A DNA stretch of 64,000 nucleotides, taken from contig JAKFFN010000113.1 of assembly GCA_036675025.1 (NCBI GenBank), positions 5,337 to 69,336 on the forward strand. The letters run 5' to 3'. This DNA comes from Candidatus Sumerlaeales bacterium. GTDB taxonomy: Bacteria; Sumerlaeota; Sumerlaeia; Sumerlaeales; Sumerlaeaceae. The translations under genes were made by a program, and so were the position numbers. Shown piece by piece: positions 5,182 to 57,493 of this stretch (position 1 is the stretch's first letter; every line of letters begins with the position of its first letter). The notes beneath the pieces were generated by a model that saw only the letters and a list, made by a program, of their open reading frames with translations, made no database searches and was not told the origin of the DNA.

Positions 5182-5841
5182 ATGAACAAACCGGAATCAG
5201 ACTTCATCGAGCCTCGCTGGCTTGCCTGGGCAAAAGAATTACATTCCGTAGCGCAGAACGGTTTGCTTTACGTGCGCGACCCTTATGACCGGGAACGTTA
5301 TGAACAGGTCTTGCGAATAGCTGCCGAAATGATGGCGACCCAGTCGGGCAGTAAAGAGCTGGAGCCAGTGCTGGACTTACTTAAGCAGGACACCGGTTAC
5401 CTCACGCCTAAGGTCGACGTAAGAGCGGCCGTGTTTCGTGAGGGAAAGGTGCTGCTGGTAAGGGAGCTTCAAGACGAGGGACGCTGGACAATGCCCGGCG
5501 GCTGGGCCGACCCTAACGATACTCCGGCTATCGCTGCCGAACGCGAGGTGGTCGAAGAAACCGGGTACCGTGTTAAAGCGGAACGCGTCCTGGCAGTGTT
5601 TGATCGCAGCCAGCCGCACCACGGCCATTATCCCCCACACCCCTTGCACAGCTACAAAATCTTCTTCCTGTGCCGCCTGGTTGGTGGAAGTCCTGCTGAA
5701 AGCCATGAGACCGGGGAGTCGCGGTTTTTCGCAGAAGATGAATTGCCAGTCGACCTCTCAATCGCGCGCGTTACACTGCCACAGCTTACTCGGATTTTTG
5801 AACAACATCGAAGCGGCACCCTTGCTGCGGATTTTGACTAA
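5182..5841 (+). CDS. NUDIX hydrolase
   Basis: It has a Nudix box, GGWADPNDTPAIAAEREVVEETG, matching GX5EX7REUXEEXGU. Confidence 0.8.
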   Translation: MNKPESDFIEPRWLAWAKELHSVAQNGLLYVRDPYDRERYEQVLRIAAEMMATQSGSKELEPVLDLLKQDTGYLTPKVDVRAAVFREGKVLLVRELQDEGRWTMPGGWADPNDTPAIAAEREVVEETGYRVKAERVLAVFDRSQPHHGHYPPHPLHSYKIFFLCRLVGGSPAESHETGESRFFAEDELPVDLSIARVTLPQLTRIFEQHRSGTLAADFD

Positions 5842-33507: not shown

Positions 33508-36015
33508 TCAATCGGTACTCATGTCCTCTTCAGCCATGATTTCAAGCTGAGACACCATCCGTTTGATCCTGTCGGCGTAGCTTTCGCTCGAAACGTGAGC
33601 TGTTGCACTCGCCATTCGACTTGCCCATAGGGGGAAAGCCAGTGGCGTAAACCTTGTCACACGGATAAGGCGAAGCTGTGTCTCCTGCAGGCGTCTCAGC
33701 GCCTCTCCCAGACGAACTACCTCCATTTGCCGTTCCATCACTTCGCGCCGTGCCTGGTCAAGCAGCAGGTTTTCCGGATCGTACTTGTTAAAAACATCAA
33801 AAAGCAGGCTGGTAGAAGATTGCACCTGCCTGGCAACTTTAGGTGCACCCGGGTAGCCTGTAAATATAAGTCCCGCCACCCGCGCCACCTCGCGAAACTG
33901 TCGTTTTGCCAGTTCGGTCGCATTAATTGACGCAAACAGATCATCCAGCAGCCGGTCCGGCGAAAGGATCTGGCGCCACGCCTTCTCATCCATTTTCAAA
34001 TCGATAGGCTCATGGCTCAAGAGTTCAAACCCATAGTCGTTCATGGTCACGCCGATTGTGCGCGGGTTCAACTGGGAGACTCTCCAGGCAACCAGGCCGC
34101 CAAGCCCTTCATGCACGAAGTGCCCTTCGAAGGGGTACAGGAAAACGTGGTAGCCCTCCCGGCTGCGTATGAACTCAATAAGCAGTTCATCCTTTGCCGG
34201 TATTACTGACCAGTGTGCCTGGATATCCAGCACCGGTTTTACCTTTTCCATCTCAGGCCCCTCGAAGTTCCCATGCCGTGCATCATCCAGTTTATCACGC
34301 ACTGCCTGGCCTAACTGGCTGGTAATGGGCATGCGGCTTCCGCCCCAGGTCGGCAGCGCGCCGCTCTGCTTCTCTGCGAACTTTACCGTCGCCGTCATTT
34401 CCTTAAGGCGCACCAGTTCAAGCAGCCGGCCCGCAAATACGAAGCAGTCGCCGTTCTTCAGTTTCGCCAGGAAGTTCTCTTCCACTGTGCCCAGGATGCC
34501 GCCGCCCTGCAGCTTTAAGGCGATGTTCATATCTGATGTAATTGTGCCGATATTAAGGCGATGAAGCTTCGCCATCTTATCACTGGAAATTGCCCAGCGG
34601 TTATCGTACTTATGAACCTTCTTGAACTGGTCGTAAGCTCGCAGCGCCTGCCCGCCATGGCTCAGGAAATCAATTACCCAATCCCATTCCTGCCGAGTCA
34701 GTTTTCGGTAAGACCATGCCTTACGCACTTCATCAAAAAGCTGCTCTTCGTCAAAACCTTCGCCGGCGGCGAGGGTCACTACGTGCTGAGTCAGCACGTC
34801 AATCGGGCGATCCGGAGGAATCCGCAGTTCTATCCGGCCCGCCTCGGCGGCGTCGCGGGTTGCAGAATACTCCACCAGTTCAAACGCGTTAGTGGGCACG
34901 CAGAGCACCCGGCTCACGCCCCCCGGCTGGTGACCACTGCGCCCCGCGCGCTGAAGCAGGCGCGCCACGCCCTTAGGGCTGCCGATCTGGATCACCTGGT
35001 CCACAGTGGGAAAATCTACACCAAGATCCAGGCTCGACGTACACACTACGCACTTGATCACGCCTGTGCGCAGGCCGTCTTCCACAGTCTCCCTGATCTC
35101 CCGGTCCAGTGAACCGTGGTGCAGAGCCATTCTGTCCTTCCAGCGCGGTCCAGCTTTCATGATCGATTGATACCAGAGCTCTGCCTGGGATCGCGTGTTA
35201 GTAAAAACCAGGGTCGTCTTTGCCCCGGAAATAGCTTTAACAACATCAGGAAGCAACCGCAGCCCGATGTGACCAGACCACGGAAACCGTTCGATGTTCT
35301 CCGGCAGCATGGTCACGATTTCGGTGATCTTGTCGTTCTCTGCGCGAATCAAAACTTTGTCACGCCTGCCTGTAGCCGTAAGTACATCCAAGGCCATGTC
35401 CAGGTTCCCAAGTGTTGCGCTAAGGCCCCAGATCCGCATGTCCGGCAGCCACGTCCTCAACCGCGCCAGGGCCAACTCCGTCTGGGTGCCCCGCTTATTG
35501 CCCAGGAGTTCATGCCACTCGTCCACAACAACGGCTTTCACAGTACCCAGCAGCTCACGCGTGTTGTCGTAAGTCAGCAGCACCGAAAGGCTTTCGGGCG
35601 TCGTCACCAGTGCCGTAGGAAGCTTCGTTTTCTGACGCGCCTTCCGTGATGCCGACGTATCACCTGTTCGTTTTTCCAGCGTCCAGGGCATGCCAAGGCC
35701 TTCGATTGGTGCACGCAGCGCCGAAAGCGTATCGTTGGCAAGAGCGCGTAGGGGAGTGATCCACAGCACTTGGGTCGGCGCTGGATCTTTCAGGTTCCAT
35801 TGCATCTTATCGGGATTGTCAGCCAGCCACTGCGATACCGGACCCAACCACACAGAGTATGTCTTTCCCATGCCTGTGGGCGCGTTTACCAGTCCATCCG
35901 CGCCTTCGGCAAAAGCAGCCCATGCTTCCTGTTGAAACTCGAACGGCTGCCAGCGCTTTCGCCTGAACCATTTCGCCAGTTCCGGGTGCAGGGTATCTGT
36001 TGTGGCCGTTGTCAT
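33508..36015 (-). CDS. Ligase-associated DEXH-box helicase (Lhr-core type)
   Basis: It has a Walker A (APTGMGKT), DEWH, SATLGN and a helicase C domain plus Lhr-specific C-terminal domains. Its start overlaps the ligase stop. Confidence 0.85.
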   Translation of the reverse strand: MTTATTDTLHPELAKWFRRKRWQPFEFQQEAWAAFAEGADGLVNAPTGMGKTYSVWLGPVSQWLADNPDKMQWNLKDPAPTQVLWITPLRALANDTLSALRAPIEGLGMPWTLEKRTGDTSASRKARQKTKLPTALVTTPESLSVLLTYDNTRELLGTVKAVVVDEWHELLGNKRGTQTELALARLRTWLPDMRIWGLSATLGNLDMALDVLTATGRRDKVLIRAENDKITEIVTMLPENIERFPWSGHIGLRLLPDVVKAISGAKTTLVFTNTRSQAELWYQSIMKAGPRWKDRMALHHGSLDREIRETVEDGLRTGVIKCVVCTSSLDLGVDFPTVDQVIQIGSPKGVARLLQRAGRSGHQPGGVSRVLCVPTNAFELVEYSATRDAAEAGRIELRIPPDRPIDVLTQHVVTLAAGEGFDEEQLFDEVRKAWSYRKLTRQEWDWVIDFLSHGGQALRAYDQFKKVHKYDNRWAISSDKMAKLHRLNIGTITSDMNIALKLQGGGILGTVEENFLAKLKNGDCFVFAGRLLELVRLKEMTATVKFAEKQSGALPTWGGSRMPITSQLGQAVRDKLDDARHGNFEGPEMEKVKPVLDIQAHWSVIPAKDELLIEFIRSREGYHVFLYPFEGHFVHEGLGGLVAWRVSQLNPRTIGVTMNDYGFELLSHEPIDLKMDEKAWRQILSPDRLLDDLFASINATELAKRQFREVARVAGLIFTGYPGAPKVARQVQSSTSLLFDVFNKYDPENLLLDQARREVMERQMEVVRLGEALRRLQETQLRLIRVTRFTPLAFPLWASRMASATAHVSSESYADRIKRMVSQLEIMAEEDMSTD

Positions 36016-37610
36016 TTATTGTGGAGCTCCAACAGGTCGTAAACAAGCTCCAGCGTATCGGCCTGGTCGGCCGGTTTATCTTTCCGCCACCGCTGAATGC
36101 GTGGGAATCTTACTGCAATGCCCGACTTGTTACGTGTGCTTGGTTGAAGACCCTCAAAGGCCAGTTCAAAAACCAGCTCCGGCTTTACCATGCGCACAGG
36201 TCCGAACTTTTCCAGCGTATTCTTTCGAACCCAGGCATCCACTTCTTTAATCTCGGAATCGGTAAGTCCGCTGTAAGCCTTTGCCACAGTAATGAGTTCA
36301 TCACCGCGCCAAACCCCAAATGTGTAATCGGTAAACAAACCAGCCCGCCGTCCACTGCCCGGCTGTGCGTACGTCAGCACGGCGTCCATCGTGTATGGAT
36401 CTACCTTCCACTTCCACCAGTCACCCTTTACGCGACCGGCGCGGTACGGAGAATCCAGCTTCTTCAGCATCAGACCTTCAGTACGATTTTCACGCGATAG
36501 CTGCCGGTGGTTCGCCAGTTCCTGCCAGCTTTCGGCGTTTACCAGCGGCGAAACATAAAGAGAGCTGTCTGGTTCCTGGTCACGCAAAAGTGACTCCAAT
36601 GCCCGGCGACGCTCCGCCAAGGGCCATTCGCGTATATCTTCGCCCTCCAACTCCATTATGTCATACGCCATAAATGCAGTCGGCGTGTCTTTTAAAATTT
36701 TAGGGGTCACAGCCTTTCGTGTAATTCGCGATTGCAGGTCCTGAAACGGTGCCGGCCGATCCACATCCCACGCCAGAATCTCACCATCCAATACGGTTCC
36801 ATCAGGTAGCGACGCTGCCGCGTCACGGATTTCCGGGAACCGGTCGGTCAGCAAATCTTCACCCCTCGACCATATGATCACCTGTCCCTGTCGACAAATT
36901 ACCTGGCTGCGGATCCCGTCCCATTTCCACTCCGCCTGGTAATGCGCCGCACTTTCCTGCTCCAGGAACTCCGTCGGCAGGGGATTAGCCAGGAAAAACG
37001 GAAATGGCTTCGCGGGATTTTCTTCCATTATCGCCGGTTCTGCCAGTCCCAGCATAGAAGTCGCAGTCGGTTCCCAGTTGCCCATCAGGCGGTGCGCCAT
37101 CACCGCAGGCTCCGCATCGTGCAGTTGGGCTAGCGCCTTTACCACAAGGGTTTTAGAAACACCTACGCGAAAAGCCCCTGTGATCAACTTGTTCCAGACG
37201 AATCGCTGATTGCAGTCCATGCGTTGCCATAACTCAATAACTGCCTTGCGTCGTTCCTCCTCAGGCATGGCTCTCAGTTTCAGCAGGTAGTCGTGCACAA
37301 GGCGATGGAGTGGAATTTCCATGGGAACTGGATTATCTGGGAGCAGCAGCGCGATTGTCTCCGCAAGGTCGCCCACATTGTGATAGCATTCGTCAACCAG
37401 CCAGTCCGGCAGTCCGGCAGCCTCGCCAACCCAACGCCGCAGCAGCGGGCTATTTACTGCGCGCTGCACTTTGGCACCCATTAAAAAATAAACAGCCCAC
37501 GCCGCATCTTCCGGCGGCGCATCTGCGAAATACTTTCGCAAGGCTTCGAGTTTTTCATTGGTCCGATTTGTGGCATCCAGGTCCATGTACAGGCGGGTAA
37601 ACTGCTGCAT
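36012..37610 (-). CDS. ATP-dependent DNA ligase (ligase-associated damage-response family)
   Basis: It has the KxDG adenylation motif (EWKWDGIRSQ) and nucleotidyltransferase and OB domains. It overlaps both neighbours. Confidence 0.9.
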   Translation of the reverse strand: MQQFTRLYMDLDATNRTNEKLEALRKYFADAPPEDAAWAVYFLMGAKVQRAVNSPLLRRWVGEAAGLPDWLVDECYHNVGDLAETIALLLPDNPVPMEIPLHRLVHDYLLKLRAMPEEERRKAVIELWQRMDCNQRFVWNKLITGAFRVGVSKTLVVKALAQLHDAEPAVMAHRLMGNWEPTATSMLGLAEPAIMEENPAKPFPFFLANPLPTEFLEQESAAHYQAEWKWDGIRSQVICRQGQVIIWSRGEDLLTDRFPEIRDAAASLPDGTVLDGEILAWDVDRPAPFQDLQSRITRKAVTPKILKDTPTAFMAYDIMELEGEDIREWPLAERRRALESLLRDQEPDSSLYVSPLVNAESWQELANHRQLSRENRTEGLMLKKLDSPYRAGRVKGDWWKWKVDPYTMDAVLTYAQPGSGRRAGLFTDYTFGVWRGDELITVAKAYSGLTDSEIKEVDAWVRKNTLEKFGPVRMVKPELVFELAFEGLQPSTRNKSGIAVRFPRIQRWRKDKPADQADTLELVYDLLELHNK

Positions 37611-38674
37611 CAGTCGCCCGCCTGCTCATCTGACTCAAATGACTGATCCACAGCCTGCTCCGCACCCTCCTCGGCTTCTGCAGCCAGTGTCTCACCCGTA
37701 TAGCGCGTAGGTACGTTGAATGCCTCTACGCGTCCCTGTTCATTAAGGAAGCGCACAAGCGGGTCAATGTGTCCATGTGTCACGCCCACGCGCTGCGCCC
37801 CCGTCGCCTCAATAGCCTCCATCAGCCCTGGCCAGTCGGCGTGATCAGACAAGATAAACCCGCGGTCCAGCGCGTTACGCCGGCGGGCTCCGCGCACTGC
37901 CATCCAGCCCGACGCAAACGCCAGCGAGGCCGGACCAAATTTCTTAAGCCACGGGCTGCCCGCGGCCGAAGGCGGCGCAATAATTAAAGCGCGCCCTTTT
38001 GCATCCTTAGAATTTTCAAGACTCGCTTTCTCTGCAAGCGGCAGGTTAATACCGGCGTCTTTATAAAGCGGCAGAAATGGGCTCACCGCCCCATGTACGA
38101 AAATGGGTCCGATAGAAGAATCAATACCTCCCAGCACCCGCTGCGCTTTTCCCAGGGAGTAGGCGAACACCACTGAAACCCGTCCCTTCTCACGGTTTCC
38201 ACTCCACCAGTTATTAATTGAGCTCATTATATCTTCTTGTGGCGACCAACGGTAAATCGGCAGGCCAAAAGTACTTTCAGTAATGAACGTGTGGCATCGC
38301 ACCGGCTCAAACGGCGTACAGGTTTTATCCGGCGTCGTCTTGTAATCCCCACTGAAAACCCATACCTCACCCTCATGCTCCAGGCGAACTTGCGAGCTAC
38401 CCAAAATATGGCCAGCTGGATGCAGCGATACCTTTACGCCATTGATAATCCGGGTCTCTCCATAAGGGATGGACTCAATATTTGCATCCGGACTCACCCG
38501 CACAGCCAACACCTGGTGACCTTCCTTGCTTGTCAGGTAAGATTTACATCCCCACCGGGCATGGTCGGTATGGGCATGCGTCACAATGGCACGCTCTACC
38601 GGGCGCCAGGGGTCCAGGTAAAAATCTCCGGCTTTGCAATACAGGCCACGATCGGTTGGTTGGATGAGAGTCAC
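37610..38674 (-). CDS. Ligase-associated metallo-β-lactamase/β-CASP exonuclease
   Basis: It has an HxHxDH motif (THAHTDHARWG) and β-CASP motifs. It is the first gene of the minus-strand operon. Confidence 0.85.
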   Translation of the reverse strand: MTLIQPTDRGLYCKAGDFYLDPWRPVERAIVTHAHTDHARWGCKSYLTSKEGHQVLAVRVSPDANIESIPYGETRIINGVKVSLHPAGHILGSSQVRLEHEGEVWVFSGDYKTTPDKTCTPFEPVRCHTFITESTFGLPIYRWSPQEDIMSSINNWWSGNREKGRVSVVFAYSLGKAQRVLGGIDSSIGPIFVHGAVSPFLPLYKDAGINLPLAEKASLENSKDAKGRALIIAPPSAAGSPWLKKFGPASLAFASGWMAVRGARRRNALDRGFILSDHADWPGLMEAIEATGAQRVGVTHGHIDPLVRFLNEQGRVEAFNVPTRYTGETLAAEAEEGAEQAVDQSFESDEQAGD

Positions 38675-38797: not shown

Positions 38798-39805
38798 ATG
38801 CTTCAGTTCATCTTAAAGCGCCTCGCCGTGGCCCTGCCATTGGCCCTCGGTGCGTCCTTTATCACGTTCAGCATCCTGTACTTCGTTCCCGGCGATCCCG
38901 TAGTCACAATGCTCGGCGACAAGGCTAATGACGCTGCCCTGGTTGCCAAAATGCGGGAAGAGCTTGGCCTAAACGATCCGTTTCTAGTGCGTTACGGCCG
39001 GTTTCTCAAGGGCCTCGTTGCCGGTGATCTTGGCAACAGCTTCGTTTCCAACCGCCCTGTTGTGGAAGAACTGACCGACGCACTTCCGGCCACCATTGAA
39101 TTGGCCATGTGTGGCCTGATCATCGCCTGTTGCATCGGTCTGGTTTCGGGAGTCGTATCAGCCGTTCGCCAGTACAGCGCCTGGGACTACAGCTTTATGG
39201 TCATCGCCCTGGTGGGTGTATCTATTCCCGTGTTCTGGCTGGCGCTCCTGCTAAGTTACTTCTTCGCTTTTAAATACCCCTGGTTCGACATGGCCGGCCG
39301 CATGAGCCAGCAATACTCGGATTTCGTTCCAATCACAGGACTGATGCTCATTGATAGCATACTGACTCTTGACTGGGAGGTGTTTCTCGATGTGCTTCGC
39401 CATATCACACTCCCGGCAGTCACACTTGGTCTAATAGGGTCTGCTCTTATTGCGCGAATGACTCGAAGCAGCGTGCTGGAAGTAAAAAACCGCGACTTCA
39501 TACGCACCGCCCGTGCAAAAGGTTTATCCTCTCGCCAGGTGTTGTGGCATGTGTTGCGAAACGCCATGCTTCCAGTGGTGACGGTTGTCGGGCTGCAGTT
39601 TGGCGCGTTGTTAGGCGGCGCAATCATTACGGAAGAAATCTTTGCCTGGCCCGGCCTCGGTACCTATCTCGTGCAGGCGATCCGCTACCGCGACATTGTG
39701 GCCGTGCAAGGTGCCGTAATGGTCATCGTGATCATGTTTCTCGTGGTGAACCTCGGCGTGGATGTTCTCTATGCCGTAATTGATCCGCGCACTAACGAGG
39801 GCTGA
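38798..39805 (+). CDS. ABC transporter permease, OppB/DppB type (orphan)
   Basis: It has 6 TM helices and a BPD_transp_1 EAA-like loop (IRTARAKGLSSRQV). No cognate OppC, ATPase or substrate-binding protein gene is adjacent. Confidence 0.85.
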   Translation: MLQFILKRLAVALPLALGASFITFSILYFVPGDPVVTMLGDKANDAALVAKMREELGLNDPFLVRYGRFLKGLVAGDLGNSFVSNRPVVEELTDALPATIELAMCGLIIACCIGLVSGVVSAVRQYSAWDYSFMVIALVGVSIPVFWLALLLSYFFAFKYPWFDMAGRMSQQYSDFVPITGLMLIDSILTLDWEVFLDVLRHITLPAVTLGLIGSALIARMTRSSVLEVKNRDFIRTARAKGLSSRQVLWHVLRNAMLPVVTVVGLQFGALLGGAIITEEIFAWPGLGTYLVQAIRYRDIVAVQGAVMVIVIMFLVVNLGVDVLYAVIDPRTNEG

Positions 39806-39907
39806 TCTACCCCTCCTCCGCCCGGTAAAAACCAATTCTTGCATTTGTTTCCGGCGCACTGATTCTTGAAATCCTATCAGACATTGCGTTACCGGAGGTT
39901 TCACTGT

Positions 39908-41989
39908 ATGAAGGAGTACTCTACCAGTCAAATCCGCAATGTGGTGCTGGTCGGCCACAGCCACGCAGGCAAAACATCGTTAATCGAGGCAATTCTCTAC
40001 AATCTGAAAATGACTGATCGTGTAGGGACCGTCGAAGAAGGAAATACTGTTTCCGATTACGACCAGGAAGAGATTCGGCGCCGCATTTCCCTTAACACGT
40101 CTCTTATTCCAATTGAGTTCCGCGACCACAAAATTAACATTCTAGACGTTCCCGGCTCTCGGGATTTTATCGGCGAAATACGCAATACCGTCCGTGTTGC
40201 GGACGCGATGATCATCTTTGTGGATGCCACTGCCGGCGTTGAAACCGGTACCGAGATGGCCTATGATCTTGCGGAAGAGTTTAACCTGCCCCGTATGTTC
40301 GTGATCAATAAAATCAACCATGAGAAAGCGCAATTCGAGCCCATAGTTGAACAGGTGAAATCGACCTTCGGTTGCAATGTGGTGCAATTGAATCACCCTC
40401 ACGGCACCGGGAACAACTTCAAAGGCTGCGTAAATCTTCTTCGCATGAAACTCGCCAGCGGCACCCAGGGCAAGGTGGATTACACCGATATACCAGCCGA
40501 GCTTGAAACGCAGTCAAAGGAGCTGAAGGCCGCGTTAATCGAAGCCGCAGCGGAAGGGGATGACGAACTCACCACCAAGTTTCTTGATGGCGAAGAACTG
40601 AGCCATATCGAAGTTCTACGTGGCTTGAAAGAAGACCTTCTCGATCACCGTATTTGTCCTGTTATTGCTGCCAGCGCTACGGAAGCCACCGGTTGCATGA
40701 GTCTTCTCGATTTCATTATTGAGTGTTTCCCGGCACCGGGCGAAGAGGGACCTTTCCGTGGCGAGGATCCGAAAACTGGAAAAGAGATTCTGCTAAAGTA
40801 TGATCCTGCTGCGCCCGTCGCCGCCTTTGTATTTAAGACCATATCCGATCCTTACGCCGGTCACCTTACATTCTTTAAAGTCCTCAACGGAAGCATGAAG
40901 AACGACACCGTTCTCCTTAACACCACCCGCGGACTGGAAGAGCGAGTAAACCGTTTCCTCACCATGCGAGGAAAGAATACGGAAACGGTAGATTCACTTG
41001 CCGCAGGGGACATCGGTGTTTTGGCCAAACTCAACAATACTCATACCAATGACACTCTCTGCGATCCCAAGGCGCCGCTCAAGATTGACCCGACCCCGAT
41101 GCCGCCTCATGTCGTTCACATGGCCATCCGCGCCAGCAACAAGGAAGACGAAGACCGCATCAGCCTCGCAATGCATCGCCTTATCGAACAAGACCCCACC
41201 CTGCATCTCCACCGCGACACCGAAACTCACCAGACGATTCTCAGCGGCATGGGTGACACCCACCTTGATGTCGCTGTAGCGCGTCTGAAAGCGCAGAGCA
41301 AGGTTGAGGTAGAACTGGAGGCGCCAAAAGTAGCCTACCGCGAAACCATTACAAAGCCTGCCAAGGGACAGGGCAAACACAAAAAGCAAAGCGGTGGCCG
41401 TGGCCAGTATGGCGACTGCTGGATCCGACTGGAACCGCTACCCGAAGGCAGTGGTTTTGTGTTCGGATGGGAAGTGGTCGGGGGTGTCGTACCTACCAAA
41501 TACCAGCCATCTGTAGAGAAGGGAATAGCCCAGGCGCTCGAGCGCGGCATACTAACCGGTCACCGCGCCGTTGATCTTAAAGCTATCTGTTACGACGGCA
41601 GCTACCACACTGTCGACTCCAGCGATATGGCATTCCAGGTAGCAGCCTCTAAGGCTTTTAAGAGCGTTGCAAAAAATGCTGCTCCTGTAATCCTAGAGCC
41701 AATTTATAAAATCAAAATAACAGTACCGGAGCAGTACGTGGGCGATGTTATGGGAGACCTGAACTCGCGGCGCGGCCGGATTCTCGGTATTGATTCAAAT
41801 GGGCGTAATCAGCGAATCGAAGCCCTGGTACCACAAGCGGAGATTCATGAGTACTCCCGGGAGCTTCGGTCTATAACGCAGGGACGGGGCACATTTGAAG
41901 CCGTTTATGAAAAGTATGACCGCGTTCCACAGCCGATCCAGGAGAAACTAATATCTTTTGCTCAGCATGACCAGGATGAAGACGATTAG
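39908..41989 (+). CDS. Elongation factor G paralog with degenerate GTPase motifs (EFG II-like)
   Basis: A GGAGG RBS precedes the ATG at 39908. Domains II–V are well conserved (HKKQSGGRGQYG; YHTVDSSDMAFQVAASKAF). The G-domain motifs diverge: G1 GHSHAGKTS, G3 DVPGSRDF (catalytic His→Ser), G4 NKIN (Asp→Asn), G5 SAT. Confidence 0.85.
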   Translation: MKEYSTSQIRNVVLVGHSHAGKTSLIEAILYNLKMTDRVGTVEEGNTVSDYDQEEIRRRISLNTSLIPIEFRDHKINILDVPGSRDFIGEIRNTVRVADAMIIFVDATAGVETGTEMAYDLAEEFNLPRMFVINKINHEKAQFEPIVEQVKSTFGCNVVQLNHPHGTGNNFKGCVNLLRMKLASGTQGKVDYTDIPAELETQSKELKAALIEAAAEGDDELTTKFLDGEELSHIEVLRGLKEDLLDHRICPVIAASATEATGCMSLLDFIIECFPAPGEEGPFRGEDPKTGKEILLKYDPAAPVAAFVFKTISDPYAGHLTFFKVLNGSMKNDTVLLNTTRGLEERVNRFLTMRGKNTETVDSLAAGDIGVLAKLNNTHTNDTLCDPKAPLKIDPTPMPPHVVHMAIRASNKEDEDRISLAMHRLIEQDPTLHLHRDTETHQTILSGMGDTHLDVAVARLKAQSKVEVELEAPKVAYRETITKPAKGQGKHKKQSGGRGQYGDCWIRLEPLPEGSGFVFGWEVVGGVVPTKYQPSVEKGIAQALERGILTGHRAVDLKAICYDGSYHTVDSSDMAFQVAASKAFKSVAKNAAPVILEPIYKIKITVPEQYVGDVMGDLNSRRGRILGIDSNGRNQRIEALVPQAEIHEYSRELRSITQGRGTFEAVYEKYDRVPQPIQEKLISFAQHDQDEDD

Positions 41990-42399
41990 TCAATGAGGGC
42001 CTGGGAAGCAGTGCCAGCAGTTTACTGTCCCATATGGAAGGATGCACGTACGCTCTAGTGTACCAAATCGTGCAGGTGTGATGTGGTCTCTGAAAGACCG
42101 TTGATCACAAACCATTGAACACGAACACTTTACGGAGATATCAAGCGTGCCCATTCGCTAGGACTGCTTTTTGTTACTATAGGCTGTCACGAAGCGCGAG
42201 AAAGTCACAACAAGACGCGAATCGTGACAGATTTGGCAGTTTCTGCGAGAGGGAAGCCGCAGAATGGGGGGTCGGATCCAAGCGCGAGGGATCCGGCCCT
42301 TCGCTATTTTAGCGAACTGCTGTTTAAAAGTATGGCCAGGAGGGGGGAGGAGGTTCTCCCGCTGGTGATTAAAATCCGGCCGTGAGAACGCAGCATCTT

Positions 42400-43185: not shown

Positions 43186-44619
43186 TCAGATTTCCTGAAC
43201 GAGGGCCAGTTGCTCTTTCTCTACAAAGACTTCCGACATTTTATGGAGCGGGCGGAGCGGAATTGCGGTTTCTATGCAGAATTCCAGAATCCGCAGAATC
43301 ACCAGGTATTCAAGCGTACAGCGTTCCATTGGGAAATCATAATACACACGGACGCTGGTTGAAAACGTCTGGTCAAAAATATCGCTCATTACAGGAACAC
43401 GGATCTGCTGCAGGTCCGGTTGCTGGAACATGTCGAATTGAAGCTTCAATTGCCTGCGCTCTGTAAGCTGCTGCTCGAAATACGTGCAGCGCTCTCGCCA
43501 GAAATCCAGCACCTGCTGGATTACGTGTAGCGCCCAACCGATCCCGCTTTCTTCCAGGTCGATCCAGATAGGCTCATAAACATTTACATCATCAGCCTGC
43601 AGGCGCCGGCGAATGTTCAACGTTTCCGTTACCGAGAACTTCCACAGCTTCAGCTTGGAGTTGGCATCTGAGAAAACATCTGCCTGCACTGCCGCTGAAA
43701 ACTTTGCATGACTGAGCAGAAACAATTCCATTACGAACTGCGAAAACTGCTGGCGGGTATCCGCGCTCATCAGTGCAAAGAAGTTGCTCTCTGCAGAGGT
43801 CCATTCCAGGAACTCCACATCGTAGCGCCCCAGCACTTCAGAAGATGCCTGGTGAAGCCACGCGATTCCATCAAATGGCAGCGTACGTATTAGCCCGCCG
43901 CGACCGTTAAAATCCGCGGACCGTCGGTTATCCAGGAAGTTCGTACGTAAGCGCAGTTCCGGTTCCTGCAGACCAATCAGGGTGTCATAAAGAAACAGCA
44001 GGATAACCTTCTGCATCAATACCTGCATAAACGCCGGCGTCGCATTCGTGCGTGCGCCGATGCCTACCTTCCACAGGTCCAGCCACCGCGCAAATTCCTC
44101 AGCCCGCTGACTGTTGGTCTTGCGCTGGATCTTGTTCCACTGCTCCGCAATGTGTGCGCCCTCAGATACGGGAATGATTACCAGTTCCTGCAGGCCCGCA
44201 AAATCGTTTCCCCACCGTATGAGTTCTTCCATGGCAGAATCATATAGAAAAAAGCTCTTTTTCCCAATGAAGAGGATATAGGGAATCTCGCAATGCGGCT
44301 TTAGACGCAGCAGCGATTCTGCAATGAAAGCATTTTTATCTACGTACTGTTCGAACAATTCATGAAATTGCGGCAGATCGGCAGTCACTGTATAGATGAG
44401 GCAAAAGGGCCGCGCATCGTATTGTGGCTGGCTTACAACGTACGGCGGAAAGCGTCTTACGCCGCGGCGGACAATAGCAGAAAGATCGCGTCCCGCTTCG
44501 CTCTGCACCCCATCAGGCGCATGCACCGGGTTGAGTTCCACCGGAAACGGTTCAATGTCACCGCGGCGCTCACTCCGGATTTCGTCTATATGTTGCCAAA
44601 AGCGTTCAAACAGATTCAT
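43186..44619 (-). CDS. Hypothetical protein (477 aa, no recognisable domain)
   Basis: It is a long uninterrupted ORF, co-oriented and tightly linked with the HAD gene. I found no nucleotide-binding or metal motifs. Confidence 0.55.
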   Translation of the reverse strand: MNLFERFWQHIDEIRSERRGDIEPFPVELNPVHAPDGVQSEAGRDLSAIVRRGVRRFPPYVVSQPQYDARPFCLIYTVTADLPQFHELFEQYVDKNAFIAESLLRLKPHCEIPYILFIGKKSFFLYDSAMEELIRWGNDFAGLQELVIIPVSEGAHIAEQWNKIQRKTNSQRAEEFARWLDLWKVGIGARTNATPAFMQVLMQKVILLFLYDTLIGLQEPELRLRTNFLDNRRSADFNGRGGLIRTLPFDGIAWLHQASSEVLGRYDVEFLEWTSAESNFFALMSADTRQQFSQFVMELFLLSHAKFSAAVQADVFSDANSKLKLWKFSVTETLNIRRRLQADDVNVYEPIWIDLEESGIGWALHVIQQVLDFWRERCTYFEQQLTERRQLKLQFDMFQQPDLQQIRVPVMSDIFDQTFSTSVRVYYDFPMERCTLEYLVILRILEFCIETAIPLRPLHKMSEVFVEKEQLALVQEI

Positions 44620-46119: not shown

Positions 46120-47478
46120 ATGCGGGGTCCGCGGACCTTTCTTCGCAAGTACTGGCCCGAAATATTGCTCCTACTGATGTTCGTGGGACTGTCGCTCTAT
46201 TATGACGCTCAACTCAAAAGTCGTCTCGATATTGATTCGCACCGTTACCTGGAGCTTGGAAATCGTCTGCTCGAAACTGGCCGGTTTGAGCATAGAGGGC
46301 TGGATGGCAACCTGACTCCCGACTACAGCAGAACTCCAACGTTTCCTCTGCTAATCGCGGCCTCGATGTCAATATTTGGCAAAAATTCAACGGCCGCAAT
46401 CACAGCAGTAATCTGGCTGCAGCGCCTGGCGTGGGCTGGCTCAGTGTGCTGGTTGCTTCCACGCATTCGCTCCGGCAGTGGAAGAGTTCGCCCTTGGTCT
46501 TTGATTGGTAAAGTCGTGCTGCTGTTTTCGCCCGTGGTGCTTTATCATGGAGCGCTGCTGCTGACGGACCTCCTTTACGCCGCCGGATTGCTGGCAGCAT
46601 GCCGGCTCACATTCCGGTCTTTAAACCAGCAACCGGTGTCTGCCCTTCCAGTGGGATTGTTTCACGGCGTGCTCACGCTCCTGCGACCTGTGCATTTACT
46701 CGTTCCCGTGATCCTGAGCCTGCCATTTATCAGGCACCGTAATACTACTGTCGTTGTTTTGATCTTCGCCGCATTTCTCGTTCCGGCAGGGTGGATGATC
46801 CGCAACCATAGCATCCACGACAGCTACTCATTAGTAGCTTTGGACGGTCGTGCCCTTGCTCTTCACCGCGAACAGACGATACGCCAGATGCAGCCCGCAG
46901 ATAGTAGCGCAGAATACGGACCGGAATTTATAGCAGCGCTTCATTCCACAAACGAGAATCCTATCACGGCCGCATGGATTCTCATGCGCGACTACCAGCT
47001 AACCGAGATTCACGCGGACAAAACAGCCAAGGCCGTTGCTCTTGAAGCGATCAGAACAGATCCGCTCAACTACCTGAAGCAAACTGCCAGCAATCTCGGC
47101 CGATTGGTCTGGAGCCGGATCGACGGCTACAACGTTGCACAGGTTCTGATGCCGGCGGCAGGGGAGCGGACCTGGCAACTGGCCGGAACAGCTAACGGAA
47201 TCTGGGGTGTTGTAATGTTTTTGTTAATCCCTGTCTGGCTTGTTGTAACGCGGATCAGGCTACGCCATTTTTACAACCGTGTCACCATAGCGTTGATTCT
47301 TCTCGCCCTATATATGGCCGCCTTACCCGCGTTTACTACCGTAACCTACGGCCGCTTCATGCTTCCCCTGCTGCCTTTGGTCGGGCTTGTTTATTGCATG
47401 GCAGATATTGGCCCACAGAAGAAGTCGTCTCGCCGTTGGCAAGAGAAAAACAAAAAGAAAAACTTTCCTGAAAGCTAG
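46120..47478 (+). CDS. GT-C fold membrane glycosyltransferase (GT39/ArnT/PMT-like)
   Basis: It is predicted to have about 10 TM helices. The N-terminal loop has a DxD-like motif (DIDSHRYLE). Confidence 0.6.
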   Translation: MRGPRTFLRKYWPEILLLLMFVGLSLYYDAQLKSRLDIDSHRYLELGNRLLETGRFEHRGLDGNLTPDYSRTPTFPLLIAASMSIFGKNSTAAITAVIWLQRLAWAGSVCWLLPRIRSGSGRVRPWSLIGKVVLLFSPVVLYHGALLLTDLLYAAGLLAACRLTFRSLNQQPVSALPVGLFHGVLTLLRPVHLLVPVILSLPFIRHRNTTVVVLIFAAFLVPAGWMIRNHSIHDSYSLVALDGRALALHREQTIRQMQPADSSAEYGPEFIAALHSTNENPITAAWILMRDYQLTEIHADKTAKAVALEAIRTDPLNYLKQTASNLGRLVWSRIDGYNVAQVLMPAAGERTWQLAGTANGIWGVVMFLLIPVWLVVTRIRLRHFYNRVTIALILLALYMAALPAFTTVTYGRFMLPLLPLVGLVYCMADIGPQKKSSRRWQEKNKKKNFPES

Positions 47479-47562
47479 GATTTTGCTTTCATGCGTTGAC
47501 ACGCTAGGCGCATCATCCGAAACCTAACAACAAAGTAAGTGTGAAAGGTCTCTCGACCACAA

Positions 47563-48945
47563 ATGGCAGAAGTTTATCCATTTATTGGAACTCGATACAA
47601 CTCGCAGCTGATCGGAAGCCTGAGTAAGGTCATCAGTCCGCCGCATGATGCGATAACACCTGAGTTGCAGAACACGTTGTATGATCGGCACGAGCACAAT
47701 ATTGTCCGAATAGCATGCGTGCGGGAAGGCGAGGGTGAAGACGAGGAAGAGGGCTTTTCCAGCCGGTTTAACCGTGCCGCCAACACGCTGGGCTCCTGGC
47801 GCAGCGACGGCGTATTTATCGAAGATGAACGTCCGTCTTTCTACTTGTATGAACAGGTGTTTAAATCTGCCGACGGCCAGGAGCAGCGCCGTTCTGGTTT
47901 TTTTGCCAAGGTAAAACTGGAAGAGACCGTTGTCAGTACTGATCCTGATGCCGTCGGACAACTCTCTGGTGCCCGGGCTGACATGCTCAGCTTTATCCGG
48001 TCCACAAAAGCCAACGTCAGCCCTATAACATCCTTGTTTGATGACCCGGGGCAGGAAGTTACCCAACTCCTCCAGGCACGCATGAAAGAAAAGCCCTGGG
48101 AGGAAATGAAAGACGAAGACGGCGTTGTTCATCGCCTGTGGGTGGTACAGAAGAAAGATTTGCTTCTTAACGTCATCGAGGCCATGAAATCTCGCAACAT
48201 CTTTGTAGCTGAAGGCCAGAAGCGCTACGTGACTGCCCAGGCGTATCGCGATGAGATGCGCGCTGAGGCTGGCAAGGGCGATGGCAAGCAGCCGTATGAT
48301 TTCATTATGATGCTGCTGCTCCCGGCGCACCAGGAAAGCCTCATGGTTGAGCCGGTACATCGCGCCCTTACCAAGAGCATCATGGCAGACGTCGATCTGA
48401 AAGACGCACTGGAAGAGCTCGGCGATAACTTTACCATCGAGCGAGATAAAGTCAACCTGGCCGACAGCGAGGCGGAAGCTGCCCGAGTAGTGGAGAGGTT
48501 GCGTGAACTTGGGAACGACGGCACTACCATCGCACTGGTTCATGCATCGGGCGGCGTGTTTTACCTGAAACTCAACAGCGACGTAGAAATGGCCGACCTG
48601 TACGACGATTCCCAGGTCCCCGATTGCATGGGGGCTGTGGACGTCTGCATTCTTCACAACTATATCATCAACCATGTGCTCATCGGGAACCCGGAATATG
48701 AACTGGATGATGATGAGTGCCTGTATGTGGAATCGGCAGAACAGCTTTTAAATCTGCTCAAACAGAAGAAGGCCGTCTGCGGCTTTCTACTGAATCCCAT
48801 GCCGGTTTCGCGCATGATGACGATTGCAGGCTCGTCGGTGCTTGTGCCCATGGACGAGGGGGCTATGCGTCCGCGTCCTGCTACAGGCCTGGTCCTTCGA
48901 AACATGCAGACCGACAATCCCAAACCCGCTCGCGCGAAGAAATAA
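47563..48945 (+). CDS. DUF1015-family protein
   Basis: Its N-terminus, YPFIGTRYNSQLIGSLSKVISPPHDAI, matches the conserved DUF1015 start (PF.G.RYN....ISPPYD.I). Confidence 0.75.
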   Translation: MAEVYPFIGTRYNSQLIGSLSKVISPPHDAITPELQNTLYDRHEHNIVRIACVREGEGEDEEEGFSSRFNRAANTLGSWRSDGVFIEDERPSFYLYEQVFKSADGQEQRRSGFFAKVKLEETVVSTDPDAVGQLSGARADMLSFIRSTKANVSPITSLFDDPGQEVTQLLQARMKEKPWEEMKDEDGVVHRLWVVQKKDLLLNVIEAMKSRNIFVAEGQKRYVTAQAYRDEMRAEAGKGDGKQPYDFIMMLLLPAHQESLMVEPVHRALTKSIMADVDLKDALEELGDNFTIERDKVNLADSEAEAARVVERLRELGNDGTTIALVHASGGVFYLKLNSDVEMADLYDDSQVPDCMGAVDVCILHNYIINHVLIGNPEYELDDDECLYVESAEQLLNLLKQKKAVCGFLLNPMPVSRMMTIAGSSVLVPMDEGAMRPRPATGLVLRNMQTDNPKPARAKK

Positions 48946-49026
48946 TACGTGCGCCTGGCCCGTGCTTAGATGCTCAGCCAGCTCGCTTCATTGATTACCA
49001 TCTCAACCCTCAGGTAGTACCGATCC

Positions 49027-50118
49027 ATGGCTCGTACGTCCAATAATCTTCTCACGCCCAACCCGGGCAGCCCGGCCGCTGCCGGCTATATCATGCCGGC
49101 AGAATGGGAGACACACGCCGCTACCTGGCTGGCCTGGCCCCATAACATTGAGGACTGGCCGGGGAAGTTTTCCGTCATCCAATGGGTTTACACAGATATC
49201 ATCAGGCACCTGGCGAAAGATGAGATCGTGAACCTGCTGGTAAACGATGCCGCCATGGAAACCAAAGCGCGGCGTGTTCTGGTTAAGCATCACGTGAACC
49301 TCGACGCTGTGAAGTTTCACCACGTAAAGACCGATCGCATCTGGACCCGTGACAGCGGCCCGATTTTCATCCAGAACTCCGACGGCAAAACCGCCATCAC
49401 CAACTGGCACTTTAATGCCTGGGCCAAATATGACAACTGGACCAATGACGACCTGGTGCCGGATGCGGCGGCTGGCGTGCTTCGCTTGAAGCAGTACAAG
49501 CCGACTGCCGGCAAGCCGAAGCGCCGGGTTGTTCTCGAGGGCGGCAGCATCGACGTGAACGGTGCCGGCCTTATCCTTACTACCGAAGAGTGCCTGCTGA
49601 GTGAAGTGCAGCAGCGCAATCCCGGGCTCAGCCGCGAAGAGGTCGAGCAGGTCATGTGCGACAACCTCGGCGTCCGCAAAGTTCTCTGGCTGAAAAATGG
49701 CATCGCCGGCGACGACACCCACGGCCACGTTGACGATCTTGCGCGCTTTACGGATAAGAACACGATTGTCATCGCCTCGGAGCAGGACAAGTCCGACGCG
49801 AACTACGAGAATCTCCGAGAGAACGTGGAACTTCTGCGCAGCATGAAGAACCTGCAGGGTCGGCCGTTCCGGGTTGTGGAACTTCCTATGCCGGCGCCCG
49901 TGGTATTCGAAGGTCAGCGTCTGCCGGCCAGTTATGCGAACTTCTACATCGCCAATAAGAAGGTTCTGGTGCCGACGTTTAATGATCCAAACGACCGCAT
50001 TGCCCTGAACATCCTGGCCGACCTGTTCCCGAAGCGGCAGATCATTGGCATTCATAGCCTGGACCTTGTCTGGGGTCTCGGCACGCTGCATTGCATGACG
50101 CAACAGCAACCTGCGTGA
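49027..50118 (+). CDS. aguA: Agmatine deiminase (porphyranase/PAD family)
   Basis: It has AguA family blocks (ATWLAWPH; EGGSIDVNGAG; GTLHCMTQQ with the catalytic Cys). Confidence 0.85.
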   Translation: MARTSNNLLTPNPGSPAAAGYIMPAEWETHAATWLAWPHNIEDWPGKFSVIQWVYTDIIRHLAKDEIVNLLVNDAAMETKARRVLVKHHVNLDAVKFHHVKTDRIWTRDSGPIFIQNSDGKTAITNWHFNAWAKYDNWTNDDLVPDAAAGVLRLKQYKPTAGKPKRRVVLEGGSIDVNGAGLILTTEECLLSEVQQRNPGLSREEVEQVMCDNLGVRKVLWLKNGIAGDDTHGHVDDLARFTDKNTIVIASEQDKSDANYENLRENVELLRSMKNLQGRPFRVVELPMPAPVVFEGQRLPASYANFYIANKKVLVPTFNDPNDRIALNILADLFPKRQIIGIHSLDLVWGLGTLHCMTQQQPA

Positions 50119-50503
50119 TTTTCGCTGGCGTGGGTAAGAAGGGCCGCGAAAGTTTTCCACAGGCAAAAAAAAAGTAATTCTAATTGCTTCAAATGCAGTG
50201 GATGCAGCGTTTTTACCTGATCTATTAAGTACATAATTATCTCGTTCTGTGCAGGTTTGGGCCGGGTAAACAGCCTTTGAATCGCTGCCGAAGTGGCCGT
50301 CGCGGAAGTGGGAGAGTTCCTGGTTCTTTTAGTTTTCATAGTGCTGGTATTTAACCGGAAGAAATCCGGTGCGCCATTCCCACACGGACCCTTAGAGACC
50401 CTTACGGGATCAGAATCATTAATCGGGGGAGTGATGCCAAACCTTGTTGATCCTGTCGGGATCATATCAGAGGAAGTAGCTTGGCGATAGCTGGAGGTGT
50501 TGG

Positions 50504-51895
50504 ATGCTCAATGGATTAAAGTCGTTAGGGTGGTGGCAGGTTTGGGTATTGCTGTTTTGTGTTGTCGGGCAGGCCGCGGAGCAATCAGACGCGAGTACGT
50601 CATCGCCGCTCTACTTTAGACAGTATGCGGTGCGGGAGTCTCGTCTGTTGGAGCTGGCAGGGGACGGCAAATACCGCCTGCTGGAGCGGGAGCATGATCG
50701 CGTAGATGAGGTCGATCGCGGGGCATGGGACGAGGTGAGTGCGGGGCAGTTGCGGTTGGTATCGTGGCGGTTTTCCAAGACTATAGATTCACCGCCTTTA
50801 AAGCTTGGTTGGGTGACAACAGAGACTTTATCGGAACTGGATCGACTGGACTCAGCCCTGGACCATATCCTGTCGCATGATCAAAGCACCACTATCCCGG
50901 GGGGATATGTCGATAACACCTTGCGCTATGCGCTTAACGATACAAAGGTGCGGCCGGATATTGATTACGAACGGATAAGAATTAAAGACCCCCAACCTAT
51001 AAGCCGGTTGGAAGTTGAGAGTTTTAAGACCGCGGTGGGCGCGGCGATGACATCACCCATTGCAGTGACGGTTGTGGCGAAGCAAAGGGAGCAGAAGGAA
51101 GTTCCGTATTTGGAGATTCCTGCCGTGACCGACTATCCGTGGGTAGGTCTGCAGAGGGCTTCTGTTAATGATGCTGCCGCGCTGGAGGCAATTACGACGG
51201 CGCCAGCGGTGGAGCGCATTCGCGGATTGTTTGTGCAGATTACGGAGGAAGAATTCCGGCGAGAGGCGACATCGCACCAGGAGTATCTGTTTGTGCCGCA
51301 GTTTGGTGCAGATGTTAGCAGTGCACCGGCGCCAGTCAAAACTTCGGATCCTGCGGTGGACCCGGTAGGCGCCATCCAGGCGTTCGTGCCGAGCCTTGTG
51401 GAGCTATCCACTAGCACGACGGAAGAAGTTGCAGGCTATTATGCGAATCCCGGCCCTACCATGAAAGGCGGATTGTCGGGGAGCAGGCTGTACCTGTTTC
51501 CGGATAGTTCCTATTTCTTCATTGAGTGGGCAGATATTATGCCCGGGCTGATAACGAGCCGGGGCATATGGGACGTGGTGGGGGATTATGTGCTGCTAAC
51601 GGATGATGGCACCGTGCAGGGCAAGGGGCGTCGGATGGATGATTTTGCATACCTGCCGGTGACGTATAAGGAGAAGGGGACAACGGTGACGGGATTGTTG
51701 GGATTTCCGGAGTCGTATGAGTGGCTGATGGATGATGATGTTTTTGACAGCCGGCGTCTGTTGTTCAGGACTATGGAGAGGTCGCGGGATATTCCGGTGG
51801 CGGAGGCAGCGGAGCTAAAGGCTGAACTGATGCGGAAACATTGGCGTCCGGATTACGCGGCGGGCAAGCCGGGGGCGCAGCCGCCGAAACGGTAG
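50504..51895 (+). CDS. Secreted hypothetical protein (463 aa)
   Basis: It has a signal peptide (LGWWQVWVLLFCVVGQA) and a GGAGG RBS. I found no assignable domain. Confidence 0.55.
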   Translation: MLNGLKSLGWWQVWVLLFCVVGQAAEQSDASTSSPLYFRQYAVRESRLLELAGDGKYRLLEREHDRVDEVDRGAWDEVSAGQLRLVSWRFSKTIDSPPLKLGWVTTETLSELDRLDSALDHILSHDQSTTIPGGYVDNTLRYALNDTKVRPDIDYERIRIKDPQPISRLEVESFKTAVGAAMTSPIAVTVVAKQREQKEVPYLEIPAVTDYPWVGLQRASVNDAAALEAITTAPAVERIRGLFVQITEEEFRREATSHQEYLFVPQFGADVSSAPAPVKTSDPAVDPVGAIQAFVPSLVELSTSTTEEVAGYYANPGPTMKGGLSGSRLYLFPDSSYFFIEWADIMPGLITSRGIWDVVGDYVLLTDDGTVQGKGRRMDDFAYLPVTYKEKGTTVTGLLGFPESYEWLMDDDVFDSRRLLFRTMERSRDIPVAEAAELKAELMRKHWRPDYAAGKPGAQPPKR

Positions 51896-52097
51896 GAAGG
51901 CTAAATGATTAGCAACTTCTGGGAATGCGCCCGGTTGCTGGCGCTGTTGGAAGGTTTGTGAGGAGCGTGTGGGAACAATAAACGTCGAGGCTGACTTCGT
52001 ACGTGAAAACTGGGGTAAATATTATGTTATGTTTGCTTCTGGCTTTGCACGCGGAAATTTTGGGTCGGTATGCGCTTTCCTACAGCGCCAGCAAGCG

Positions 52098-57405: not shown

Positions 57406-57493
57406 TGGTGCCGGAGACAGGACTTGAACCTGCACAGCCTTGCGACTACTAGAACCTGAATCTAGCGCGTCTGCCAATTCCGCCACTCCGGCA
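57406..57493 (-). tRNA. tRNA-Leu (anticodon CAG), 88 nt incl. encoded CCA
   Basis: The minus-strand sequence is GCCGGAGTGGCGGAATTGGCAGACGCGCTAGATTCAGGTTCTAGTAGTCGCAAGGCTGTGCAGGTTCAAGTCCTGTCTCCGGCACCA. It has a 7-bp acceptor stem, a long variable arm, the anticodon loop TTCAGGT and a GTTCAAGTC T-loop. It closely matches the D and anticodon arms of E. coli leu tRNA(CAG). Confidence 0.9.

Follow-up and report, generated by a model that had tools for sequence, protein, structure and literature searches.

Here, we describe a paralog of elongation factor G (EF-G) encoded in a stretch of 64,000 nucleotides (nt) from a Candidatus Sumerlaeales bacterium (GenBank assembly GCA_036675025.1, contig JAKFFN010000113.1, forward strand, positions 5,337 to 69,336); this whole stretch is called the window in the following, and all coordinates count from its first letter. 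The gene occupies positions 39908-41989 of the forward strand as an uninterrupted reading frame of 693 codons, and its product can be assigned with high confidence to the EFG II (EF-G2-type) paralogs, here from a member of the Sumerlaeota. As translation start, the ATG at 39908 was favoured over an upstream TTG at 39866, because a GGAGG motif lies about 10 nt upstream of the former and the consensus N-terminus of 117 full-length close homologs is MKEY. The Pfam domain set of an EF-G is complete (GTP_EFTU, EF-G_D2, EFG_III, EFG_IV and EFG_C), and the following features were located:

39893-39897, forward strand: Shine-Dalgarno sequence GGAGG, about 10 nt 5' of the ATG at 39908, read from the sequence
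39908-41989, forward strand, stop codon included: complete coding sequence of the EFG II-type EF-G paralog, 693 amino acids (aa), based on open reading frame (ORF), Pfam, NCBIfam, diagnostic residues and AlphaFold model
39929-40732, forward strand: G domain with its G' subdomain, spanning residues 8-275 (Pfam GTP_EFTU)
39953-39979, forward strand: G1/P-loop GHSHAGKTS, residues 16-24, with the GxxxxGK[ST] consensus kept and with G16 and L25 of the EFG II type I set
40076-40093, forward strand: switch I/G2 RRRISL, residues 57-62, with Ser61 in place of the Mg-coordinating Thr
40145-40168, forward strand: G3/switch II DVPGSRDF, residues 80-87, with DxPG intact and Ser84 at the position of the catalytic His
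40307-40318, forward strand: G4 NKIN, residues 134-137, with Asn137 in place of the guanine-specifying Asp
40673-40684, forward strand: G5 SATE, residues 256-259, which fits the EFG II consensus gSAx; its last residue varies within the family
40814-41320, forward strand: domains II and III, residues 303-471, including T311, G355 and K374 of the EFG II type I set (Pfam and diagnostic positions)
41324-41680, forward strand: domain IV, residues 473-591, with loops conserved in the 117 homologs
41690-41947, forward strand: domain V, residues 595-680, with the type II residue G627 (Pfam EFG_C)

In domain IV, loop 1 reads GQGKHKKQSGGRGQYG and carries the EFG II type II residues K492 and K493, and loop 2 reads YHTVDSS. 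The AlphaFold2 model is a confident EF-G fold (predicted local distance difference test 89, predicted template modelling (TM) score 0.84) and superposes best on ribosome-bound EF-G (7N2V, TM 0.93), followed by ribosome-bound EF-G2 of Mycobacterium smegmatis (9K0Z, TM 0.88) and EF-G2 of Bacteroides thetaiotaomicron (8DMF, TM 0.86); the model does not, however, tell the classes of EF-G apart. A frameshift, a sequencing error or a misalignment as the origin of the unusual motifs described below, which a first-pass annotation of the gene had named as a possible refutation, was ruled out: the reading frame is intact and the alignment to Thermus thermophilus EF-G is colinear. Moreover, the motif states are no assembly artefact, since an identical protein is encoded on an independently assembled Logan contig and homologs from other samples show these states as well.

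According to Margus et al. (2011; PMC3150367), EFG II differs from EFG I at six type I positions (Gly16, Leu25, Ser61, Thr291, Gly333 and Lys/Arg352 in the numbering of PDB 1WDT), and seven type II positions are under stronger selection. The same study gives the motif consensus of EFG II as GhxxxGKT for G1, DxPG without a conserved His for G3 and SAx for G5, with the G2 consensus RGITI relaxed to xxxSx, the exchange of Thr for Ser being a signature, and with NKxD of G4 conserved. EFG II genes are located outside the str operon and always occur together with another EF-G, usually EFG I, in the genome (Margus et al., 2011). The residues listed in that work were mapped onto the window protein via an alignment holding both Thermus proteins. 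Here, we observed all six type I states (G16, L25, S61, T311, G355 and K374) as well as all seven type II states (D218, V252, L266, K492, K493, E537 and G627), and these 13 states are conserved to 92-100% among the 117 homologs (type I: 92-99%). The relaxation of G2 is seen in RRISL, and three of the five motifs that appear altered, namely G1, G2 and G5, match the consensus of the subfamily. In G4, by contrast, NKIN is found instead of NKxD. Since all remaining characteristics are present, this exchange was taken as a departure within EFG II and not as a reason for exclusion from it.

Profile searches led to the same assignment. The best NCBIfam model is NF009381 (PRK12740.1-5) with 901.5 bits against a cut-off of 583 and an alignment over positions 1-689 of 692, whereas the equivalog model of canonical EF-G, TIGR00484, reached 641 bits and thus stayed under its cut-off of 659.4. 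The NCBIfam model for EF-G2 remained far under its cut-off, as did those for Bacteroides EF-G2 and for tetracycline protection proteins. NF009381 was matched by all 66 sampled homologs at E ≤1e-200 and is also the best model of T. thermophilus EF-G-2 (808 bits), for which TIGR00484 failed; for a canonical representative (P0149), in contrast, TIGR00484 scored best with 1149 bits. The 13 of 13 diagnostic residues, the best match shared with Thermus EF-G-2 and the TIGR00484 score below cut-off together support the placement in EFG II, which the first-pass annotation had proposed and for which it had suggested such a profile comparison. In a neighbour-joining tree built with one canonical outgroup, without bootstrap and without an EFG I, spdEFG or Tet reference set, Thermus EF-G-2 nests among sequences lacking the His. 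The nearest named database proteins (49-100% identity) come from Candidatus Sumerlaeota/Sumerlaeaceae, including the complete genome of Candidatus Sumerlaea chitinivorans. In summary, the diagnostic residues, the G1, G2, G3 and G5 consensus, the location outside the str operon and the NF009381 match are common to EFG II and the window protein, which differs from the subfamily in NKIN and in a near-invariant Arg85, a feature of its close family and no general EFG II trait. With canonical EF-G (EFG I, fusA; e.g., T. thermophilus, PDB 1DAR) it shares the five-domain fold and the residues at the tip of domain IV; however, besides the insufficient TIGR00484 score, it lacks AHIDAGKTT, RGITI, DTPGH and NKxD, and the gene does not lie beside rpsL, rpsG or tuf.

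The HMMER alignment to canonical T. thermophilus EF-G (580 bits, query residues 3-683 against 6-689 of the chain) is nearly free of insertions and deletions at about 40% full-length identity. It bore out each substitution listed in the first-pass annotation: AHIDAGKTT is replaced by GHSHAGKTS, RGITI by RRISL, DTPGH by DVPGS, NKMD by NKIN and SALK by SATE. From these, the annotation had described a catalytically degenerate G domain in which every nucleotide-binding motif is altered, a description that stands in part. The substitutions are real, and the catalytic His, the Asp of G4, the Lys of G5 and the Ile of the hydrophobic gate in the P-loop, which is replaced by the polar S18, are truly lost. 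These are, however, the only losses: GxxxxGK[ST] of G1, DxxG of G3, the hydroxyl of switch I (as Ser) and SA of G5 are kept, and with them the phosphate- and Mg-binding core is intact. Position 18 is Ser in 70 and Thr in 40 of the 117 homologs, and position 61 is Ser in 115. The codon of Ser84, TCT, is at least two changes away from any His codon.

The loss of the His extends far beyond this gene. In the 117 full-length close homologs, Tyr (61), Arg (19), Phe (14), Ser (8), Thr (8), Asn (4) or Ala (3) occupies the position, and His never does. An exhaustive HMMER search of 1.84 billion cluster representatives yielded 4,457 proteins at E ≤1e-30; of the best 150, representatives of 50%-identity clusters with 35-57% identity, 5 retain the His, one of them with the full canonical motif set. 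A genome scan with peptides specific to the query brought up no Sumerlaeaceae genomes; it revealed EFG II loci with 41-50% identity in Sumerlaeota, Armatimonadota, Nitrospirota, Methylomirabilota, Desulfobacterota (e.g., Geomonas paludis and Syntrophobacter), Acidobacteriota, Gemmatimonadota, Chloroflexota and Bacillota, and the His was absent from 29 of 29 translated loci from about ten phyla. It is likewise missing in the characterised paralogs T. thermophilus EF-G-2 (DAPGY), M. smegmatis EF-G2 (Tyr98) and B. thetaiotaomicron EF-G2 (DCPGS). The differences in G1, in switch I and at the His position are a signature of the family and no gene-specific decay. Directly after the lost His, Arg85 is found in 108 of the 117 homologs (GxRDF; positions 40157-40162 encode residues 84-85), where canonical EF-G has Val, Thermus EF-G-2 has Gly and Bacteroides EF-G2 has Asp. 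It is a conserved basic residue at the entrance to the active site.

Around these variable positions, conservation is high. Invariant in the 117 homologs are R58, G21 and K22 of the P-loop, D80, P82 and G83 of G3, D86 and F87; N134 is kept in 114 of them, and position 135 is Lys or Arg in all. The same applies to the tip loops of domain IV, which extend into the decoding centre (K492, Q494, G496, G497, G499, Q500, H567, D570, S571 and S572 invariant), and to the acidic G' residues contacting L7/L12, of which E212 and E216 never vary and D218 is kept in 112 of the 117 homologs. Within the clade of the window protein, conservation of the G-domain core equals that of the other domains, with mean pairwise identities of 0.72 and 0.68-0.80, respectively. 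Compared with the gene of the nearest homolog (82% aa identity), the proportion of nonsynonymous differences (pN) is 0.076 in the G core and 0.12 over the whole gene; synonymous sites are saturated at this distance (pS 0.73-0.93), so that pN values and two regional ratios only were considered. By these measures, the G domain and the protein as a whole are under strong purifying selection. The term degenerate should be read as a hydrolysis-impaired switch and not as a dead domain.

Three characterised relatives frame the question of function. B. thetaiotaomicron EF-G2 (BT_2167; PDB 7UVP/8DMF; NF058620), whose sequence was recovered indirectly from a PDB alignment with the related 717-aa protein P0200, resembles the window protein in its Ser at the His position (DCPGSDDF; DVPGS in the latter), in the Ser of its switch I and in the basic KKQ loop of its domain IV. 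At about 35% identity, it differs in G1 (GSSGSGKTT), G4 (NQLD) and G5 (GGK), and the window protein scored 617 bits against its NCBIfam model NF058620, far under the cut-off of 1000 and in two stretches with a break near residue 515. Both Bacteroides EF-G2 and P0200 (G4 TKIN) contain an insertion of 20-29 residues in domain IV after an 'EP..E' strand, which is absent at the corresponding site of the window protein (residues ~513-514); for Bacteroides EF-G2, its length is roughly 26-29 residues. PDB entry 7UVP is named 'Tetracycline resistance protein TetQ', while 8DMF gives the same chain as EF-G2. T. thermophilus EF-G-2 (TTHA1498; PDB 1WDT/2DY1), verified against PDB 1WDT and the numbering reference for EFG II, shares with the window protein the motifs DF[IV]GEIR, LPRM and GQGK[HY]KKQ[ST]GG.GQYGD.W as well as the missing His (DAPGYGDF). 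It differs in having Tyr at the His position, a retained Thr in switch I, TKLD as G4 and a shorter chain of 658-665 aa with deletions. M. smegmatis EF-G2 (MSMEG_6535; PDB 9K0Z/9K10) is more distant (433 bits); it has Tyr in place of His, altered G4 (TKLD) and G5 motifs, and a stress-associated role, and is non-essential.

Experimental work on such proteins suggests what the window protein could do. Bacteroides EF-G2 is GTPase-deficient yet translocates without hydrolysis of guanosine triphosphate (GTP) in experiments, with fusA2 being induced on mucin and reaching its peak in carbon deprivation. The E. coli EF-G variant H92A is highly deficient in hydrolysis and release of inorganic phosphate and still supports slow multi-turnover translocation. 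In mycobacterial EF-G1, H88Y nearly abolishes the ribosome-dependent GTPase, which is lacking or minimal in M. smegmatis EF-G2 with its natural Tyr. By analogy, the window protein would still bind a nucleoside triphosphate and dock in the EF-G site of the ribosome, but ribosome-stimulated hydrolysis would probably be very slow or absent, because the catalytic His is replaced by Ser and the hydrophobic-gate residue is polar. Asn137 would lower or broaden base recognition. The protein could then act as a low-cost, slow translocase driven by nucleotide binding, or as a ribosome-associated factor, used beside a canonical EF-G and most plausibly under nutrient or energy limitation. Taken as a whole, an EFG II-type alternative translocase or ribosome factor that is nucleotide-bound but hydrolyses poorly is the best explanation and, in our view, slightly on the probable side; for its mechanistic part, the chances appear evenly balanced.

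Several points weigh against this reading. T. thermophilus EF-G-2 is reported to possess intrinsic and ribosome-dependent GTPase as well as polyphenylalanine synthesis activity despite lacking the His (DAPGY), and a missing His is therefore no proof of missing hydrolysis. Han et al. in 2023 reportedly ascribed the GTPase deficiency of Bacteroides EF-G2 to a unique region of 26 residues, and the domain IV insertion of that protein is, as described above, absent here. Furthermore, the near-invariant Arg85 could, judging from its conservation, serve catalysis or the anchoring and docking at the sarcin-ricin loop. Finally, the gene context is not conserved and offers no functional clue. The view of the first-pass annotation that the function of the subfamily is unresolved needs qualification: translocation without hydrolysis by Bacteroides EF-G2 and GTP hydrolysis by Thermus EF-G-2 are described, and the function is by now partly understood.

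The option that survives best beside the hydrolysis-poor factor is an alternative translocase which does hydrolyse GTP like T. thermophilus EF-G-2, i.e., a normal but slower GTP-consuming isoform relying, for instance, on an elevated, Gly16-linked intrinsic GTPase or on help from Arg85. The reported retention of GTPase and translocation in the Thermus protein, with Tyr at the His position and membership in the same NCBIfam subfamily, speaks for this option, as do the conserved acidic G' residues for L7/L12-stimulated hydrolysis and the nearly invariant R85. However, the residue at the His position is so variable (Y/R/F/S/T/N/A) that no conserved catalytic role attaches to it, the hydrophobic gate is dismantled, the exchange of His for Tyr nearly abolishes the activity of canonical mycobacterial EF-G, and Bacteroides EF-G2 with the same Ser is without GTPase. 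We regard a GTP-hydrolysing isoform as rather unlikely.

Still somewhat less probable is a stress-specific regulator that, like mycobacterial EF-G2, binds non-rotated 70S ribosomes or 50S subunits without supporting translocation or recycling. M. smegmatis EF-G2, a paralog from the same broad class, combines Tyr for His and degenerate G4 and G5 motifs with minimal GTPase and a stress role, and superposes in its ribosome-bound form well on the predicted model. Yet, while this protein reportedly binds non-rotated ribosomes and can carry out neither translocation nor recycling, both domain IV tips are invariant in the family of the window protein, including the extra-basic KKQ loop that was proposed to strengthen contacts to the decoding centre for translocation, and similarity to M. 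smegmatis EF-G2 is lower than to Thermus EF-G, Thermus EF-G-2 and Bacteroides EF-G2.

The change in G4 bears on base recognition. In terms of sequence, the exchange of NKxD for NKxN is the sole departure of the window protein from the EFG II consensus. Position 137 is Asp in 87, Asn in 24, Glu in 5 and Gly in 1 of the 117 homologs, and all Asn cases fall within a Sumerlaeaceae-like group at ≥60% identity, where they make up 24 of 35 sequences; outside it, Asn is rare (3 of 150 cluster representatives). In the neighbour-joining tree, the clade of the window protein (P0001-P0009, P0012 and P0035) uniformly combines NKxN with SATE as G5 and with either Ser or Thr in place of the His, Asn137 being fixed down to about 65% identity. 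The S. chitinivorans clade also has Asn, there together with Tyr at the His position, NKMN and a G5 of APIS/AGxx. Asn is found in further scattered lineages, which are interleaved with NKxD lineages, and in several of the Asn lineages the Ser of G5 is replaced as well, by Ala or Asn. The AAC codon of Asn137 is kept while flanking codons vary synonymously. This pattern fits base recognition that has been either relaxed or re-tuned while the phosphate/Mg site stayed strictly conserved, and Asn137 and the variable G5 probably weaken or relax the recognition of guanine without abolishing nucleotide binding.

In a more specific and unlikely version, Asp137->Asn would have re-tuned the specificity of the protein, either towards xanthosine, inosine or adenosine triphosphate (XTP, ITP or ATP) or towards weak GTP binding that reports the cellular GTP level. 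Engineered GTPases with Asp->Asn in NKxD switch from guanine to xanthine (EF-Tu D138N, Ras D119N), which supports such a change, together with the fixation of Asn in the own clade, its recurrence in the S. chitinivorans clade and elsewhere, its rarity outside the group, the accompanying loss of the G5 Ser in several lineages and the otherwise conserved NKxD of EFG II. Against it, XTP in the cell is normally negligible, the interleaved Asp and Asn lineages fit relaxed constraint equally well, N134 and K135 are retained, and a literature search gave no biochemical data on natural NKxN translational GTPases. That NKxN marks the first natural translational GTPase lineage with a re-tuned base specificity, be it for xanthine/hypoxanthine, as relaxed purine recognition or as GTP binding so weak that ribosomes are engaged only beyond a threshold concentration of GTP, is a doubtful proposition; in that case, a hydrolysis-independent alternative translocase would possess a built-in sensor tying it to the guanine-nucleotide status of the cell.

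It is very improbable that the protein protects ribosomes from tetracycline, as TetM/TetO/TetQ do, or that it is an EF-G for recycling only, like spdEFG2 or mitochondrial EF-G2. In favour stand the EF-G fold common to all of these, the 'TetQ' label given to the Bacteroides EF-G2 chain by its PDB depositors and a weak match to the protection model NF012153. However, this match reached 289.6 bits against a cut-off of 775, the models specific for TetM/W/Q stayed at ≤190 bits against cut-offs of ≥1100, the loops of domain IV are invariant and of the EF-G type, all EFG II diagnostic residues are present, and mitochondrial EF-G2, the recycling-only factor that was checked, keeps the catalytic His and its GTPase. 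Equally remote is a sole housekeeping EF-G or a decaying, non-functional duplicate, for which the absence of a canonical fusA from the 64-kb window could be quoted, but decay is at odds with an intact reading frame, strong purifying selection including the G core and dozens of invariant functional residues.

Two features next to the gene complete the description of the locus:

38798-39805, forward strand: ATP-binding cassette (ABC) transporter permease gene (Pfam BPD_transp_1), 5' of the EF-G paralog and possibly co-transcribed with it
42284-42304, forward strand: hairpin resembling a terminator, with a T-rich tail behind it, located about 295 nt past the stop codon; found by consensus scan only, its assignment to the EF-G gene being uncertain

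A tblastn search of the window detected no second EF-G homolog, and the gene is surrounded by the permease, a haloacid dehalogenase (HAD) hydrolase and an Lhr/ligase cassette, in agreement with the first-pass annotation, which had noted the absence of a canonical fusA from the window. The adjacency to the permease recurs in the contig of the nearest homolog (L086) and is absent in more distant Sumerlaeaceae; in S. chitinivorans (CP030759.1, L002) and in a metagenome-assembled genome of the Sumerlaeaceae (L004/L005), the EF-G2 ortholog follows yajC-HD-secDF instead. None of the examined loci (the window, L086, S. chitinivorans and the metagenome-assembled genome) is a str operon. The position after yajC-HD-secDF in distant members and beside an orphan permease in the window and L086 suggests a local rearrangement within the Sumerlaeaceae. 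The EF-G paralog is separated from the HAD gene, which is convergent to it, by a non-coding gap of 410 nt (41990-42399), in which the hairpin at 42284-42304 is the only terminator-like structure and no Rfam family was matched; this gap could represent a long 3' untranslated region or an unannotated small RNA. Scanning the 64-kb window with Rfam and ARAGORN revealed nothing associated with the EF-G paralog, the sole match being a tRNA-Leu(CAG) at 57406-57492 on the reverse strand.

Further observations concern the remainder of the window. On the reverse strand, directly upstream of the permease and EF-G genes, 33508-38674 holds three genes that overlap or follow one another closely. Besides a DEAD/DEAH helicase of the Lhr type (835 aa) and an ATP-dependent DNA ligase (532 aa), they include an ORF of 354 aa that has no Pfam match at 1e-5 and carries an HxHxDH-like motif (THAHTDH). 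Together, they resemble a ligase-associated DNA-damage-response cassette. A 477-aa ORF at 43186-44619 (reverse strand), located between the genes for the HAD hydrolase and a pterin-4a-carbinolamine dehydratase, has no Pfam family at E ≤1e-5. The same holds for a 452-aa ORF at 46120-47478 (forward strand) following a dethiobiotin-synthase-like gene (AAA_26/CbiA), where the blank is unexpected, as a biotin-pathway enzyme might be expected at that position. From the ORF listing, the coding strand is ambiguous in two regions in which ORFs overlap almost fully, namely at 47524-48945 (383 aa, reverse; 460 aa, forward) and at 49003-50166 (387 aa, reverse; 363 aa, forward). GC skew shows a spike of 0.211 at 50001-52000, with absolute values ≤0.13 in the rest of the window.

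With the gene described here, the EFG II class without the His is seen to reach into the Sumerlaeota, an uncultured phylum. The loss of the His itself is the property of a whole, very large class, and no new principle is added by this gene. EF-G2-type paralogs bear on the question of whether GTP hydrolysis drives translocation and on translation under energy scarcity. In this context, the fixed exchange of Asp for Asn with the phosphate and Mg ligands kept is an experiment of nature on the extent to which an EF-G-like switch depends on guanine recognition and, if specificity or affinity is truly shifted, it would add a new regulatory twist to alternative translocases.

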